A DNA stretch of 64,000 nucleotides, taken from IMG/VR virus record IMGVR_UViG_3300025168_000002. One strand, written 5' to 3'. The notes beneath the pieces are model-generated. The model did no database searches and was not told the origin of the DNA. It saw only the letters and a program-made list of their open reading frames with translations. Position numbers and translations under genes: made by a program. This DNA comes from an uncultured virus (IMG/VR IMGVR_UViG_3300025168_000002). Lineage: Duplodnaviria; Heunggongvirae; Uroviricota; Caudoviricetes; Crassvirales. Within the stretch, counting starts at the first letter, position 1. Each line of letters opens with the position of its first letter. Shown one piece after another: positions 11,877 to 39,919 of the stretch.

Positions 11877-12008
11877 TTAGCCTTTAAAGATAGCATAAAT
11901 TTTTACGCCATTTTTGTTATTAATTAGTTTTCGTTCTATCTTTTCTTTTGAAACGACAACCGCAGGTTGGAGTTTCGGGTTTTTTGAATTTAACTTACGC
12001 TTTTTCAT
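11877..12008 (-). CDS. 43-aa basic microprotein between groEL and groES
   Basis: Hand-translated MKKRKLNSKNPKLQPAVVVSKEKIERKLINNKNGVKIYAIFKG; overlaps the groEL stop and ends 3 nt before groES. Confidence 0.65.
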   Translation of the reverse strand: MKKRKLNSKNPKLQPAVVVSKEKIERKLINNKNGVKIYAIFKG

Positions 12009-13608
12009 TTGCCCTTTTATGTGTTATAATTGCGTTTGTACTTAAAATAGTTGTAGCTACAGACACAGCGTTCATTAAAGCGTTCCTAGTTACCTTCAGC
12101 GGATCAATAACTCCCATTTTAAACATATCTCCAAACTTCTCGTTCTTTACGTCATAACCCTGGCTAGCCGCCTTGTCATAAATATGTTCTACAATTAAGT
12201 GTTCTTCCATTCCTGCGTTAGAAATTATTTGATTCAATGGCGATATTAATGCTTCTGACAATATTAATACCGCTGCTTTGTAATTATTATCTTCACAAGA
12301 GTTTAATAATTTTATTAGCTTTTGTGACTCTCTAAATAGTGCTAGCCCACCACCTGACAGTATTCCTTCTTCTAATGCTGATCTAACAGCACAAACTGAG
12401 TCATCTACTCTATCATACTTTTCTTTCTGTTCTACATCTGAATTTCCACCTACATAGATACACCCTATAGCTCCTGCTAAACTTGCGATACGCTCATTTA
12501 TAAACTCACGATCATCTTTTATCTTAGTATTCTCTTGCTGTACTTTTAGATCTTCAATTCTTTTTGTAAGCTCGTCAGTAATATTATTATCTTTTAATAT
12601 AATAGTGCTCTCAAGTCCTGATATAATTTTGTCAGCATGACCCAGATCCTTTACTGTCATTAAACTTAAGTCGTCTCCAGTTTTTTCGCTATAGTATGTA
12701 GCTCCTACTGCCATAGCTATATCTTGCATAAGCTCATGAGTCTTGTATCCAAAGCTAGGTGGCTGTATGCTACAAAATTTTAATCCATTACGAGCAACAT
12801 TAGCGGCTAAAGTATTTATAACATTAGCAGAACATGGTGCAATAATTAAAAGTTTCTCTCCGTTATTTATTACTGGCTTTAAAACTCCTTCTATTTGTAA
12901 TATATTATTTATCTCTGCGTCACAAACTAATATTTTTACATCTTCTAGTATACACTCGTCTTTCTTTTGGTTATTAATAAACATATTAGAAGAATAACCC
13001 CTAGCTATTTTTATTCCGTTAGTAACCTCTGCGTATGTATCTGCCGTCATAGACTTCTCTACAGTTACTATACCGTTAATTCCTACCTTATGATAAGCGT
13101 CAGCTATAATAGTACCTATCTCTTTGTCATTATTAGCAGAGATACAGGCAACATCTAATAACCTAGCTTGTGTAACCGCCTTAGAACTCTTCTTTAAGTT
13201 CTTTATAACAGTCTTAGTTAAAGTGTTAATGTATTTTATAACCTCAGTATGATTTGTTTTCTCAGACAAAGTATCTTGCCCTGCCATAACTAGAGCTTCA
13301 GTTAATACAATAGCCGTAGTTGTTCCGTCTCCAGCTGTATTAGCCGTTCTACTAGCCGCATCTTTCATCATTTGTATTGCAAGGTTTTCTATAGGATCAT
13401 CTAAAAATACAGATTGAGCAACAGTAACACCGTCTTTAGTTATTGTTATTCCTGCTGTATGATTAGGCGATTCTATTAGAACGGTTTTACCCAAAGGGCC
13501 TAGTGTACTTTTTACTGCTTTAGAGATTGACGTTATTCCTTTGATTAATTTTTGACGAGCTTCATCATCAAAAGATAACTGCTTAGGTATGTATCCTTGA
13601 GTTTCCAT
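11995..13608 (-). CDS. groEL: Chaperonin GroEL (phage-encoded)
   Basis: TLGPLG, ITKDGVTVA, AGDGTTTA, ISANND, EEGILSGGG, GVIDPLKV; no GGM tail. Confidence 0.97.
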   Translation of the reverse strand: METQGYIPKQLSFDDEARQKLIKGITSISKAVKSTLGPLGKTVLIESPNHTAGITITKDGVTVAQSVFLDDPIENLAIQMMKDAASRTANTAGDGTTTAIVLTEALVMAGQDTLSEKTNHTEVIKYINTLTKTVIKNLKKSSKAVTQARLLDVACISANNDKEIGTIIADAYHKVGINGIVTVEKSMTADTYAEVTNGIKIARGYSSNMFINNQKKDECILEDVKILVCDAEINNILQIEGVLKPVINNGEKLLIIAPCSANVINTLAANVARNGLKFCSIQPPSFGYKTHELMQDIAMAVGATYYSEKTGDDLSLMTVKDLGHADKIISGLESTIILKDNNITDELTKRIEDLKVQQENTKIKDDREFINERIASLAGAIGCIYVGGNSDVEQKEKYDRVDDSVCAVRSALEEGILSGGGLALFRESQKLIKLLNSCEDNNYKAAVLILSEALISPLNQIISNAGMEEHLIVEHIYDKAASQGYDVKNEKFGDMFKMGVIDPLKVTRNALMNAVSVATTILSTNAIITHKRANEKA

Positions 13609-21409: not shown

Positions 21410-21712
21410 ATGAAAAGAGAAATATTTGATAAGTATGCAACTGCAATAGCAGATAGATTTCATGTAACATTAGATGAAATGTTTACAAAAACTAAAAAAA
21501 GAGAAGTCGTAGAAGCAAGACAAATGCTATACTTTTTGTCAAGAGAACGTCCAATAAGGTTTTCTTATATTCAAAAATTCATGGAAGATAACGGACACCC
21601 CGTAACACATTCTACCATTATTTACGGATATAACAAAGCAAAAAAGTTTGTAGATAGTGATCCTGACTATAAAGAGGTTGTAGATAGTATTTTAAAAAAT
21701 TCAGTAAGCTAA
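21410..21712 (+). CDS. DnaA C-terminal (domain IV)-like helix-turn-helix protein
   Basis: KTKKREVVEARQMLYFLSRE...I...HSTIIYG matches the Bac_DnaA_C pattern (R...AR..AMYL...HTTV). Confidence 0.75.
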   Translation: MKREIFDKYATAIADRFHVTLDEMFTKTKKREVVEARQMLYFLSRERPIRFSYIQKFMEDNGHPVTHSTIIYGYNKAKKFVDSDPDYKEVVDSILKNSVS

Positions 21713-23393: not shown

Positions 23394-23553
23394 AATAGCT
23401 TATCAAGTATTAAAACACTATCTTTCTAAGTTGTCCTGGGAAAGAGAAATATTTATAGTAGAAGTTCCAACTACTATGGAGAGCGAACAGCAAAAGCAAC
23501 AGCTTATGGCTGACGTTTTAGAAATTTTGGAGCATCAAGTTAAAATACATTAA
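23380..23553 (+). CDS. 57-aa hypothetical protein
   Basis: Hand-translated MKHYKIAYQVLKHYLSKLSWEREIFIVEVPTTMESEQQKQQLMADVLEILEHQVKIH; fills the gap. Confidence 0.6.
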   Translation: MKHYKIAYQVLKHYLSKLSWEREIFIVEVPTTMESEQQKQQLMADVLEILEHQVKIH

Positions 23554-23555
23554 AA

Positions 23556-23843
23556 ATGGAAGATAAAAAAATTTTTGTTGGATCAGGTATATCAAAGTTT
23601 GAAGGAAATCTTGTGTCTTGTAGTATATGTCTTTCTGATTTACCATCAGAACATATATTTGAGTACAATTCTAAGAAATACATAAAACTGAATGTCCAAA
23701 AGAAAAAAGAAGTAGATCAGTATGGTAAATCACATTCTGTATCTATTGACACTTGGAAGCCAGAGCCTAAGAAAGAAGACCTTTCAGCAAAACTGGAAAG
23801 TATGAAGGTTACTCCAGACAACGATCCAGATTTGCCGTTTTAA
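23556..23843 (+). CDS. Putative single-stranded DNA-binding protein
   Basis: KKYIKLNV..KKEVDQYGKSHSVSIDTWKP and acidic C-terminal DPDLPF tail. Confidence 0.65.
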   Translation: MEDKKIFVGSGISKFEGNLVSCSICLSDLPSEHIFEYNSKKYIKLNVQKKKEVDQYGKSHSVSIDTWKPEPKKEDLSAKLESMKVTPDNDPDLPF

Positions 23844-23955
23844 CCATAAAGGGGGTGGACGAACGGCGTTTTGCCACCCAACAATAACAGGGGGTTTAAG
23901 AGCTTCCAGTTTTAATTAAATTTTTATATCTACCCCCTTTTTTTAATTTAATATA

Positions 23956-26337
23956 ATGCAAATAACAATTTTTAAAGACATAAAAGACACATCACAACCA
24001 TTTTACAGAAATGTTATGGTAGTGCTGGAAAGAATAGAGCAAGGGAACTCAAAAGATATAGTAAAAAAAATAAGACTTACAAAAAACAAAGAAGAAAGAA
24101 ACGATTTAAAAAAACAATTACCAGCAATATGTTTTAGCGGAAACTTTACTAAAAGAAACGACGCCTCTCTAACAGAGCATAGCGGCTTAATTTGTTTAGA
24201 TTTTGACGGATACAAATCAAGTAAAGATTTGCTCCAGGAAAAAGAAAAATTAACTAAAAATAAATTTGTTTTTTCTGTTTTTATATCTCCTAGTGGTAAA
24301 GGTTTAAAAGTTTTAGTTAAAGTTCCAAAAGACGTAGATAACCATAAAAATTATTTCTCATCATTAAACAAATATTTTAATTCACCATACTTTGACACAA
24401 CCTCAAAAAATGTTTCTAGAGTCTGTTACGAGTCTTATGATCCTTTAGTTCATATAAATTTGACGTCAAGCCTTTGGGATAAAATAGAGGAAGTGGAGTT
24501 TGTTGAATTAAACAAGTATAAAGACAAGCCAACAATACCTGTTACAGATGAAAATAAAATTGTAGATATTCTTATGAAGTGGTGGGAGAATAAATATGGG
24601 CTGGTAAACGGAGAGAGAAATAATAATGTTTTTATTTTAGCATCAGCCTTTAATGATTTTGGAGTTCCTAAAAATTTAGCTGAATATGTTATGGGTAATT
24701 TTGATTCAAAAGATTTTAATATAAACGAAATTAGAAGAACAATAAATTCCGCATACGCACAAGTTCAAAATTTTGGAACTAAGTATTATGAAGATCAAGA
24801 CAGGGTAAACCTGGTAAAACAACAACTCAGGCGTGGCGTCTCAAAAAAAGAGATCCGATGTCAATTAGAGGACGAAAAAATTGATATCGGTGACATAGAA
24901 AACGTTATAGTAAGAATAGAGGAAGAGCAAACTAATCATAAGTTTTGGACTAAAAATGAAAAAGGAGTAATAAAAATAGTACATATATTATTTAAGAACT
25001 ACCTGGAAGACAATGGTTTTTATAAGTTTAGCCCAGAGGGTAGTAAAAATTATGTATTCGTTAGAGTAACCAACAATTTAATAGATCATACGTCTGAAAA
25101 AGAAATCAAAGATTTTGTTTTAAATTATTTACTTACAGTTGATGATCTTTCTGTCTACAATTATTTTGCTGAACAAACTAGATATTTTAGGGAAGAGTTT
25201 CTAACATTAATGGCTTCAATAAATGTTTTTTTTATAGCCGACACTAAAGACGTAGCATACTTGTACTATATGAATTGTGCTGTTAAAATTACAAAAACTG
25301 ATATTATACTAATTGATTATTTAGATTTAGGTGGTTATGTATGGAGAGATCATGTTATAGATAGGACTTTTACTTTATGTAAAGTGGGTAGTTGCGATTA
25401 TAAAGTTTTTATTTCAAATATTTGTGGCGAAGACGATAGCCGAGTAAACTCTATGGAGTCTACCATTGGTTATTTGCTGCATGGTTGGAAAAATTTATCA
25501 TACTGTCCAGCTGTTATACTTAATGATGAAATTATATCAGACAATCCTGAGGGTGGTACTGGTAAGGGGTTGTTTATGAACGCATTAGCTAAAATGAAGA
25601 AATGTGTAACCATAGACGGAAAGAGTTTTACGTTTGAAAGATCATTTGCATATCAATTAGTTTCGGCTGATACACAAATATTGTGTTTTGATGATGTAAA
25701 GAAATCTTTTGATTTTGAAAGATTATTTAGCATAATAACAGAGGGGATAACGCTTGAGCGTAAAAACAAGGATGCAGTGAAAATTCCTTTTAGTAAATCT
25801 CCTAAAGTTTCTTTAACAACAAATTATGCTTTAAAAGGAAAGGGATCTTCTTTTGAAAGAAGAAAGTGGGATCTTGAATTAGCACATTTTTACACGAAAG
25901 ACTTTACTCCTTTGGTAGAGTTTGGAAAACTTATGTTTGGAGAGTGGGACGATACTGAATGGTGTCAGTTTGATAATTATATGATGACTAACTTGCAGTT
26001 ATATCTTAACAATGGATTAATTAAGGGTAATTTTGTAAACAAAAAAATAAAAGATTTGTCTAGCGAGACTTGTCATGAATTTATAGAGTGGTGCGGTTTA
26101 GTAGGAGACTCACAGATAAATGAAAAAATTAAACCAAATAGCAGAATGTATAAGCAAGACTTGTATGATGAGTTTATTAGCGAATATCCTGATTTCGCTC
26201 CTAAATCAAAGTTTACCGTCCCCCGCAGAAGGTTTTATAATTGGATAAAGGCTTACTCGGCTTACGAATACAATAGTTTACCCGAAGAGGGTAGAGATTT
26301 AGGCGGTAGATATTTTATGTTTAAAACTAATGATTAA
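23956..26337 (+). CDS. Primase-helicase (BT4734/VirE_N-type primase + PriCT-like domain + P-loop helicase)
   Basis: LKKQLPAICFSG, HSGLICLDFD, FISPSGKGLKV, SRVCYESYDP; GERNNNVFILA; Walker A EGGTGKGL and Walker B ILCFDD. Confidence 0.85.
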   Translation: MQITIFKDIKDTSQPFYRNVMVVLERIEQGNSKDIVKKIRLTKNKEERNDLKKQLPAICFSGNFTKRNDASLTEHSGLICLDFDGYKSSKDLLQEKEKLTKNKFVFSVFISPSGKGLKVLVKVPKDVDNHKNYFSSLNKYFNSPYFDTTSKNVSRVCYESYDPLVHINLTSSLWDKIEEVEFVELNKYKDKPTIPVTDENKIVDILMKWWENKYGLVNGERNNNVFILASAFNDFGVPKNLAEYVMGNFDSKDFNINEIRRTINSAYAQVQNFGTKYYEDQDRVNLVKQQLRRGVSKKEIRCQLEDEKIDIGDIENVIVRIEEEQTNHKFWTKNEKGVIKIVHILFKNYLEDNGFYKFSPEGSKNYVFVRVTNNLIDHTSEKEIKDFVLNYLLTVDDLSVYNYFAEQTRYFREEFLTLMASINVFFIADTKDVAYLYYMNCAVKITKTDIILIDYLDLGGYVWRDHVIDRTFTLCKVGSCDYKVFISNICGEDDSRVNSMESTIGYLLHGWKNLSYCPAVILNDEIISDNPEGGTGKGLFMNALAKMKKCVTIDGKSFTFERSFAYQLVSADTQILCFDDVKKSFDFERLFSIITEGITLERKNKDAVKIPFSKSPKVSLTTNYALKGKGSSFERRKWDLELAHFYTKDFTPLVEFGKLMFGEWDDTEWCQFDNYMMTNLQLYLNNGLIKGNFVNKKIKDLSSETCHEFIEWCGLVGDSQINEKIKPNSRMYKQDLYDEFISEYPDFAPKSKFTVPRRRFYNWIKAYSAYEYNSLPEEGRDLGGRYFMFKTND

Positions 26338-27562
26338 GTTTAGAGAATATCAATCTGAAATTATAGAGAAATCTTTAAATATTTTAAACTTAAATCGTTT
26401 CGTTTATTTAGCTATGGAGGTTAGAACAGGTAAAACTCTTACAAGTCTGGGGATAGCTAGTCGTCTTAGTGTCTCTTCTGTTTTGTTTATAACAAAGAAA
26501 AAAGCCATATCAAGTATAGTAGATGATCATAATTTATTAAAACCAGGGTATGATTTGACTGTAATTAATTACGAAAGTATTCATAAATTACCTAAAAACA
26601 AATGGGGTTTAGTAGTGTGTGATGAGGCTCATTCTATGGGTGCATTTCCTAAGCCAAGTAAAAGAGCAAGGCAAGTTAAAGAATTAATTATGTATTGTAA
26701 TCCTTATGTAATATTGTTGTCTGGAACTCCAACTCCTGAATCTTTTAGCCAAATGTTTCATCAAGTTTATGGTATACCTGGTAATCCTTTTTCTAATTGT
26801 AAAAACTTTTACGCTTTTGCAAAGTCTTATGTTGATGTAAAGCAAAGAAAAATTAATAGTATGTTTATTAATGATTACTCAAGGGGTACCGACAAGATAT
26901 TACAAAAAATAAACCCTTACATTATTAATTATACGCAAAAATTGGCAGGCTTTAAAACAAAAACAACTGAAAAAGTGTTATATGTAGATTTAAAAAAATC
27001 AACTATAAAAATTATAAATCAGTTAAAAAAAGACAGAGTTATAGAAGGTAAAGAAGAATTATTATTAGCAGACACACCAGCTAAACTTATGATTAAAACA
27101 CATCAACTTTGTTCTGGAACAATCAAATTTGAAAGCGGTAACTCAATAATTTTAGACTACTCAAAAGCAGAGTTTATACTAAATAAATTTAAACGTCAAA
27201 AAATAGCAATTTTTTATAAGTTTACCCAGGAATATAATGCTTTAAAAGAGATCTACAAAGACTTAATTACTAATGACTTAGAAGAGTTTAAAAACTCTAA
27301 CAAAAGTATTGCGTTGCAAATAGTATCAGGAAGAGAGGGGATAAGTTTAAAAGAAGCTAATGCATTGGTTTATTATAATATAGATTTTTCAGCTACATCA
27401 TACTGGCAAAGCAGAGACAGAATGACTACTAAAAATAGACTCGTTAATAATGTTTATTGGATTTTTAGCAGAGACGGAATTGAAAAAGATATATACAAAG
27501 CGGTGGTTAAAAAGAAAGATTACACCCTTGCTCATTTTAAAAGAGATTTGTTAGATTTGTAA
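26330..27562 (+). CDS. Superfamily 2 (SNF2-like) helicase
   Basis: FREYQ, MEVRTGKT, CDEAH, LLSGTP, SGREGISL, QSRDR. Confidence 0.9.
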   Translation: MIKFREYQSEIIEKSLNILNLNRFVYLAMEVRTGKTLTSLGIASRLSVSSVLFITKKKAISSIVDDHNLLKPGYDLTVINYESIHKLPKNKWGLVVCDEAHSMGAFPKPSKRARQVKELIMYCNPYVILLSGTPTPESFSQMFHQVYGIPGNPFSNCKNFYAFAKSYVDVKQRKINSMFINDYSRGTDKILQKINPYIINYTQKLAGFKTKTTEKVLYVDLKKSTIKIINQLKKDRVIEGKEELLLADTPAKLMIKTHQLCSGTIKFESGNSIILDYSKAEFILNKFKRQKIAIFYKFTQEYNALKEIYKDLITNDLEEFKNSNKSIALQIVSGREGISLKEANALVYYNIDFSATSYWQSRDRMTTKNRLVNNVYWIFSRDGIEKDIYKAVVKKKDYTLAHFKRDLLDL

Positions 27563-39166: not shown

Positions 39167-39919
39167 CTATGGATAACTTTTCATCACACTACTCCCTACG
39201 GAAAACAGTTCAACTGGAGTCGTGTCTGTGTTTTCTAGCTTAAATCTCATAAAATACCCACGGGCTCCGTATGATTCTGCAACAGGATTTTTATAGTAAA
39301 AAGCAAACTGATTTGGTAATGGATTGTTTAATACTACCGCAATAGTTACGGTGTTTGTTGCCTGGTTAATAGCTGTAATTATTCCTGTAGGACGAGAAGA
39401 TGTTGGTGTTACCTGATGGTACAGTGTATCTCCAACACTAACTATATTACCTAGACTAACACTAAATACAACATCTATACCTACAAAAGCTACATTTACA
39501 GCTGTTATAGATCCTATTCCGTTTGCTGATCTTAATTTAAAATTAACTGTAGTACTTTTGTTTCTAATAAACGTAAACCACTCCCCTTCTTTTTGTTTAA
39601 AGTATGTGTTTAGCATATTACCAGTGCTCAGGTCAGTTGTTAATTCGTTTACCCCCCACGAAGCATCACTTTCTAACGACATTGTTTTAAAAAGTTTTAC
39701 TGTTTGAGGTTCAACATTAAAAACTCCAGTAATGTTTGAATTATATTGAACGTTATAATAATTATTTCTTACTTCATTTGTATTATGCCTAAACAGTTGG
39801 CCGTTATTAAAAGAATAAAAATAACTATTCATACCCATCATGTATTCAGGTAGAAAAGAATAAAAAGACGGCCATCCTTTCACTCCGTCACTATAAGATA
39901 ATGTTTCTTTAATTGCCAT
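39167..39919 (-). CDS. Tail protein
   Basis: GWPSFYSFLPEYM...VKLFKTMSLES...ESYGARGYFM resembles the C-terminal part of tail nozzle/stabilisation proteins. Confidence 0.6.
   Translation of the reverse strand: MAIKETLSYSDGVKGWPSFYSFLPEYMMGMNSYFYSFNNGQLFRHNTNEVRNNYYNVQYNSNITGVFNVEPQTVKLFKTMSLESDASWGVNELTTDLSTGNMLNTYFKQKEGEWFTFIRNKSTTVNFKLRSANGIGSITAVNVAFVGIDVVFSVSLGNIVSVGDTLYHQVTPTSSRPTGIITAINQATNTVTIAVVLNNPLPNQFAFYYKNPVAESYGARGYFMRFKLENTDTTPVELFSVGSSVMKSYP

Follow-up and report, generated by a model that had tools for sequence, protein, structure and literature searches.

We identified a putative -1 ribosomal frameshift signal within the primase-helicase gene of an uncultured virus, whose DNA was analyzed as a single window of 64,000 nucleotides (IMG/VR record IMGVR_UViG_3300025168_000002). 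The signal very probably directs a programmed frameshift of the truncating kind, with a primase-only product of 309 amino acids made beside the 793-amino-acid enzyme. In the proposed mechanism, a ribosome with AAA AAA occupied by two lysine tRNAs would run into a hairpin 5 nt ahead and pause; a fraction of the ribosomes would slip back one base, read 11 codons and stop, releasing the AEP primase together with the PriCT-1 domain (309 aa) and dropping the helicase, and the other ribosomes would make the 793-aa primase-helicase. Tandem -1 slippage predicts the pattern seen here, in which the first A and the run of six A's are fixed, the last base may vary and a hairpin follows after 4-7 nt (for the heptamer rule and the spacer range of -1 shift signals, see the available parts of PMC5009743 and PMC6771820). 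We infer the shift itself, its -1 direction and its efficiency, as well as the set ratio of the two products that a preliminary description of the site had proposed.

The gene (23956..26337, plus strand; phrog_28855) comprises 793 codons. Fold and motifs point to a fusion of an AEP-type (BT4734-like) primase, a PriCT-1 domain and an SF3/D5-type helicase, with primase, polymerase and helicase activities predicted accordingly. The BT4734-like N-terminal (AEP primase-polymerase) domain covers residues 51-163 (24106..24444; Pfam PF08800, E = 6e-20) within a fold of about residues 1-175 and is followed by the PriCT-1 helical domain at residues 214-272 (24595..24771; Pfam PF08708, E = 7e-6; helices at residues 199-267 in the structural model). 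A three-helix linker is modeled at residues 281-326 (24796..24933; helices 281-292, 297-305 and 311-326), and alignment, Pfam and Foldseek place the helicase module from about residue 330 onward (24943..26337), all on the plus strand, with the Pfam domain DUF5906 at residues 532-624. In the alignment of homologues, residues 533-538 and D579-D580 of the helicase part fall in invariant columns, and we take them to be the Walker A region and the acidic pair of the primase-helicase, respectively; in the primase part, D82 and D84 are invariant and H75 is nearly so. The best Foldseek matches of the full-length model were full-length PrimPol-helicases and the SaPI5 primase-helicase, and the model of residues 1-330 matched the RepB' primase, its top Foldseek match, and the S-2L PrimPol (Z = 9.0, rmsd 4.2, 139 aligned). 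A PDB sequence search with the protein returned two designed helical proteins only. The shift site corresponds to the start of the second helix of the modeled linker, which is of variable length or missing in distant relatives.

At the site, the third base of S296 and the codons of K297 and K298 (TCA AAA AAA) form the slippery heptamer A_AAA_AAA (24843..24849, plus strand, like the elements that follow). A 5-nt spacer, GAGAT (24850..24854), separates it from a hairpin (24855..24890) with a 12-pair stem (24855-66/24879-90, one G-U) and a 12-nt loop, and the -1 frame encodes an 11-residue tail, RDPMSIRGRKN (24849..24884), that ends at a TGA at 24882-84. When the sequence was re-read, every coordinate that the preliminary description had assigned to the heptamer, spacer, stem, -1 reading and TGA proved correct; its placement of the site after the primase and PriCT domains and before the helicase agrees with Pfam and the model, and the two products that it predicted follow from the sequence (309 aa, 36.0 kDa, and 793 aa, 92.6 kDa). 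Two further points that it raised have no evidential value: CTC AGG CGT GGC GTC, the upstream codons regarded as unusual, vary freely among homologues, and the nearness of the -1 stop is uninformative, given that a stop occurs within 11 codons at 77% of background positions. The 86-nt fold at the site has a z-score of -2.55, with 2 of 200 shuffles equally good. The gene holds 14 in-frame X_XXY_YYZ heptamers, and among the 163 in-frame heptamers in the long ORFs of the window, the site ranks sixth by downstream folding energy, so the case rests on the homologues: from the window alone, the site is not beyond chance, but across homologues, it is. Among the Rfam frameshift elements, a search of positions 23400-26400 yielded no match at the site and one chance match elsewhere (E = 3.4).

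Homologous genes were analyzed in several sets. The first set originated from 231 loci, 3 of which do not cover the site, and contained 187 distinct genes, reduced to 155 at <95% nucleotide identity; later scans provided held-out sets of 42 and then 67 genes. The pool of 305 distinct genes combines 238 genes from 408 usable loci out of 426 (at least 50% amino acid identity, <93% nucleotide identity around the site) with the 67 genes, drawn from 150 usable loci out of 156 further ones. A_AAA_AAN is present at the site (codons 296-298) in 199 of the 305 pooled homologues and in 104 of the 155 genes of the first set. Conservation of the A-run among homologues, which had been suggested as a check on the signal, was borne out: where the amino acids permit the heptamer, it is found in 104 of 128 first-set genes compared to 21.2 expected from the codon use of each gene, an observed-to-expected ratio of 4.9 against at most 2.1 at 19 other permitting sites, and the held-out set of 42 genes gave 29 of 41 compared to 6.1 expected. 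Ser, Pro, Thr and Ala codons all occur as the source of the first-position A, and the last base is free (A in 143, G in 45, T in 9 and C in 2 of the 199 genes), as tandem tRNA slippage allows.

The suppressed synonymous variation that had likewise been proposed as a check did not hold up. The dip at codons 296-297 in heptamer-bearing genes was rejected as evidence, being circular and equalled at codons 661-672. The latter codons (25936-25971) and codons 571-581 (25666-25698) show lowered synonymous variation with or without the signal, codon 579 being GAT in 149 of 151 genes; the gene-wide folding scan detected no hairpin signal in either segment, and perhaps an internal promoter is involved. 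In the helicase part, A_AAA_AAN is avoided at three positions that the amino acid sequence leaves open to it: codons 363, 601 and 602 (25042, 25756 and 25759) carry it in 0 of 122, 3 of 149 and 4 of 151 genes, compared to 18, 48 and 51 expected. In a single lineage (L358, positions 1180-1240), the heptamer is replaced by G_CGA_AAG, the -1 shift site of IS1222 (PMC5009743, available in part), followed by a hairpin of -22.9 kcal/mol; further homologue scans revealed no close relative of this gene.

The heptamer and the downstream hairpin occur together. In the first set, the 51 nt after the heptamer position fold with a median energy of -11.6 kcal/mol in genes with the heptamer and -4.2 kcal/mol in those without it; energies below -8 kcal/mol were obtained for 88 of 104 and 5 of 51 genes, respectively, and z-scores below -2 relative to codon shuffles for 53 of 104 and 2 of 51. 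In the held-out sets, a stable hairpin is present in 26 of 29 genes with the heptamer versus 0 of 13 without it (42 genes) and in 41 of 46 versus 4 of 21 (67 genes). A gene-wide folding scan was run on 28 genes less than 80% identical, with codon-shuffled controls, using 45-nt segments in 12-nt steps, a design that may under-score hairpins elsewhere; the segment from codon 299 was the most stabilized of 193 along the gene (-5.5 versus a median of -0.24, sd 0.63, that is, about 8 sd). The spacer, also named as a check at the outset, is 4-7 nt long in 101 of the 114 heptamer genes with a stable fold, 37 of them having 4 nt; in bacterial -1 signals, a stem-loop or pseudoknot lies about 5-9 nt downstream (PMC5009743, available in part). 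Homologues therefore do not break the A-run or the stem freely, the outcome that the preliminary description had named as refuting the signal; run and stem are kept together and lost together.

The signal is distributed unevenly. The heptamer is missing in 106 of 305 homologues, so the signal is not essential to the family, and a stable hairpin is missing in 30 of the 199 heptamer-bearing homologues. The signal reaches down to 52% identity; below 50%, the heptamer was found in 1 of 15 relatives, without a hairpin, no equivalent signal was detected in the linker of these relatives, and one metagenome scan with a distant protein as the query found nothing. On a midpoint-rooted FastTree phylogeny built without the site columns, which does not distinguish gains from losses, at least 13 changes of heptamer state are required. 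In comparisons of 12 independent pairs, stem and heptamer agree in 7.2 and disagree in 0.3 (z < -1, median p 0.016), in 6.0 and 0.3 at z < -1.5 (p 0.031), and in 5.8 and 0.7 at the -8 kcal/mol cut (median p 0.125), which makes for a modest test of the stem-heptamer link. The sister clade of the window's gene, with 10 members, has neither heptamer nor hairpin. Among MAG loci, the link is weaker, with a hairpin in 11 of 16 genes with the heptamer and 4 of 9 without it, three of those four being distant genes. The sole full-length relative in GenBank (L233) has lost the site. The cultured Elemovirus and Maribacter phage Panino share the primase part alone and have no in-frame A_AAA_AAN. In Elemovirus-type phages (L232:2986-4845, L334-L336), residues 1 to ~299 are fused to a different C-terminal helicase, which places a swap point near the frameshift site. 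No homologue with the reversed arrangement (a stop in frame 0 and the helicase in the -1 frame) was found, nor was a conserved in-frame ATG after the site that could act as a separate helicase start, and five broken genes break elsewhere (residues ~114, 553, 603, 640 and 717).

The predicted short product would contain the AEP and PriCT-1 domains whole and end inside the three-helix linker, after its first helix in the model. The -1 tail is 0-58 residues long in homologues (13 or fewer in 115 of 153) and is not conserved, which implies that truncation is what matters. We lean towards a role for the short protein as a free primase or gap-filling polymerase acting beside the helicase ring; the equivalent N300 fragment of the phage NrS-1 primase-helicase primes and polymerizes alone, albeit less efficiently, and binds DNA weakly (PMC7102993, available in part). 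It appears rather doubtful, granting the frameshift itself, that the short product is waste and that the signal serves only to keep down the output of full-length helicase from a message that is translated well. The unconserved tail of 0-58 residues, the 13 or more changes of state on the tree and the truncation of a predicted helical bundle by the cut would all suit such a role, as would the presence of SNF2 and exonuclease neighbor genes with or without the signal (neither these nor the VRR-NUC neighbors separate lineages with the signal from those without it). However, the primase module is complete just before the site, and in cultured Flavobacterium phages, residues 1-299 are joined to another helicase, which marks the primase part as a portable unit; moreover, a weaker start signal would presumably be a cheaper route to low output.

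The sharpest test of slippage is a comparison at the first base of the heptamer, because both lysine-type codons stay fixed in it and because the first A would be of no consequence unless the P-site tRNA shifted its pairing back by one base. In the pool, folds below -8 kcal/mol follow the site in 169 of the 199 heptamer genes, compared to 2 of the 30 genes in which the first A alone is changed, a mostly silent difference, and 12 of 74 others. The 30 first-base variants have a slightly lower G+C content (0.32 versus 0.35); the codon-shuffle score agrees with the energies, with z below -1.5 in 2 of the 30 variants and 119 of the 199 heptamer genes. This comparison bears on the very unlikely case of a pause without a frameshift, in which the two lysine codons and the hairpin would slow the ribosome and let the primase fold before the helicase emerges. 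The position of the site at a domain boundary and a hairpin acting at the RNA level would be expected for a pause as well, but a pause has no need of the first A, and yet 28 of the 30 first-base variants lack the hairpin.

The stem covaries, as the preliminary description had proposed to check. The pair 24858/24887, between the third (wobble) position of codon 301 and the second position of codon 311, emerged as the top mutual-information pair without the stem being selected for, and occurs as A-U in 45, C-G in 39, U-A in 18 and G-C in 13 of 153 genes, with at least 11 changes among the Watson-Crick types on the tree. By excess complementarity, this pair ranks first among 124,285 column pairs in heptamer genes and 121,310th among 123,325 in the others, the ranking over all column pairs of the gene being a control that keeps relatedness. 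For 102 of the 153 sequences, covariation of the window's structure was 0.271, compared to at most 0.146 for slid partners, and no loop positions appear among the top 10 complementary pairs. Only 65.6% of the cells pair in the window's register, owing to bulges and to a second register, shifted by one, that 15 genes use. RNAalifold detected no consensus structure on the 102 heptamer-bearing sequences, and most of the remaining pairs in the stem have no high rank for complementarity. Together with the shifted register, these results show that the conserved element is a hairpin at a given distance and not one fixed structure. On the evidence of the homologous sequences, this is a real, selected RNA signal beyond protein coding.

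It is improbable that the element operates in DNA or on the other strand, as an antisense terminator or as a DNA hairpin with an A-tract, for example, an origin or priming site within the gene. The minus strand does carry a hairpin before T7, and the strand test is weak, the plus strand being more stable in 73 of 133 genes and, alike, in 39 of 64 heptamer-less genes. Nevertheless, no terminator-like match was found at the site on either strand, 4-7 nt separate stem and run (in the window, a 5-nt gap and a 12-nt loop, against a short loop and a U-run that begins 0-2 nt from a GC-rich stem in an intrinsic terminator), and the bases adjoining the stem vary, the distal six, in codon phase, being fixed. 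Furthermore, G-U pairs outnumber A-C pairs by 95 to 36, and the stem sequence itself is not conserved, unlike a protein-binding site.

The least probable explanation is transcriptional slippage on the A-run that would produce messages with extra A's, as in Thermus dnaX: seven A's stand at 143 of 199 sites, and several short database proteins end at the run with out-of-frame tails, but slippage has been described on runs of 9 (PMC5009743, available in part) compared to 7 in the window, the 56 of 199 sites with only six A's fold equally stably, the site is unchanged and free of indels in the contigs of 4 of 4 sequencing runs (one run being possibly the source of the DNA, and contigs dropping rare variants), and the short proteins occur on one contig each, where indel errors or contig ends suffice. 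Natural stand-alone primases were also sought among 120 short homologues; the 10 proteins examined that end near the site come from a single contig each, lie in clusters of assorted fragments and may be fragments themselves. The database proteins P0026, P0031, P0061, P0093, P0107 and P0114 stop at the two lysines and carry out-of-frame tails; each is known from a single contig, and homopolymer errors are the likely cause.

Bacterial truncating -1 frameshifts are described in few genes, namely, dnaX, copA and csoS2, and the phage cases described with them extend virion proteins (PMC5009743, available in part). In E. coli dnaX, A_AAA_AAN on two lysine codons and a 3' stem-loop direct a truncating -1 shift that separates tau and gamma (PMC5009743 and PMC6771820, both available in part). 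The present site resembles dnaX in the in-frame A_AAA_AAN on two lysine codons, in the 3' stem-loop, in the truncation of a replication protein and in an early stop after the shift with the long product in frame 0, although the early stop is not beyond background. The exact A_AAA_AAG of dnaX occurs in 45 of 199 homologues; the window has A_AAA_AAA, the commonest form among homologues, which in E. coli promotes shifting less than A_AAA_AAG does (PMC5009743, available in part). Pairing of a Shine-Dalgarno stimulator 9-14 nt upstream was not above codon-shuffled controls (66 of 153 heptamer-bearing genes better, p 0.53; in the window, -3.5 versus -6.2 for shuffled sequences). Hence, of the "dnaX-like" label given initially, the heptamer and the 3' hairpin stand and the upstream Shine-Dalgarno stimulator does not: the site would work like dnaX but is no strict dnaX-type cassette. 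It differs from dnaX also in residing in a phage primase-helicase rather than a clamp-loader subunit, in its patchy occurrence within the clade, and in the stop, which follows 0-58 codons on, compared to one in dnaX.

As in E. coli copA and in csoS2, the N-terminal part would be released from a longer gene (PMC5009743, available in part). The csoS2 signal of alpha-carboxysome loci, which is predicted in 79 of 162 species and apparently has no 5' Shine-Dalgarno stimulator (same source), is similar also in its patchy occurrence and in that no such stimulator is seen. However, copA and csoS2 are cellular metal-transport and carboxysome genes with detected products, whereas the phage product reported here is predicted. 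Phages are known to use a -1 frameshift to make the tail-assembly chaperones G and GT. T7, T3, A2 and Listeria phages have further -1 shifts, located in capsid or tail genes (PMC5009743, available in part). All of these share with the present case phage-encoded -1 shifting at heptamers by host ribosomes, but they extend a virion or assembly protein, whereas here a replication enzyme would be truncated. Two forms per gene arise also in RSF1010 (RepB' and MobA-RepB') and T7 (gp4A and gp4B), by internal starts that drop the N-terminus. The likeness lies in one replication gene with fused and unfused forms, RepB' being an AEP primase found both free and fused; in contrast, the C-terminal helicase would be dropped here, and no conserved internal ATG was found. 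The domain order, from an AEP domain through a helical domain and a flexible linker around residue 300 to an SF3 helicase, is that of the NrS-1, S-2L and SaPI fusions. NrS-1 N300 is an engineered laboratory construct, active alone, whereas the product described here is predicted from a natural shift. The word "frameshift" does not occur in PMC7102993 or PMC8718748, nor "primase" in the available part of PMC5009743. We found no literature report of frameshifting in a primase-helicase gene, in line with the initial remark that none was known for this primase family, although candidate tables of surveys and subscription journals could list the site.

The terminase and portal match 87 GenBank records, of which 86 are phages named for Flavobacterium, Cellulophaga, Tenacibaculum or Maribacter and one is an uncultured 61-kb podovirus; the best cultured matches show 45-49% identity. 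Near-identical DNA is present in marine metagenomes, and the host presumably belongs to Bacteroidota. DNA polymerase families gave no match in 38 of the 45 ORFs of at least 120 aa (the other 7 are 120-149 aa long), which suggests that the primase-helicase may be the only DNA-synthesizing enzyme of the phage. Tentatively, we propose that in a large clade of aquatic phages related to podoviruses of Flavobacteriia, a single gene gives rise to both parts of a replisome: a helicase ring with attached primase-polymerase domains, formed by the full-length protein, and an unattached primase-polymerase, supplied by the frameshift at a tuned ratio and used in lagging-strand priming or to fill gaps. A shift at this site would mean that frameshifting splits a replication enzyme of a phage, which annotation would miss, the main reading frame being uninterrupted. 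It suggests a route by which fused primase-helicases gain extra primase, as a primase-only fragment that we otherwise met only as a laboratory construct (NrS-1 N300). Heptamer and stem exist in approximately 200 natural variants, among them repeated losses and a single swap of the motif, and these constitute a test set for the rules of frameshifting in Bacteroidota-type hosts.

Several other features of the window were recorded. No tRNA genes were found in the window. A terminator-like hairpin followed by a T-run (23890-23907, plus strand) lies 50 nt before the start of the primase-helicase gene, one chance match being expected in the region. Further upstream, positions 21410-21712 (plus strand) encode a stand-alone protein of 100 aa that contains the C-terminal helix-turn-helix domain of DnaA, and a protein with this domain is likewise encoded upstream of the primase gene in MW202828. 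The minus strand encodes a GroEL-type chaperonin of 537 aa (11995-13608; phrog_5725) and, at 39167-39919, a match to the C-terminal domain of the crassvirus muzzle protein (PF25729, E = 2e-13).
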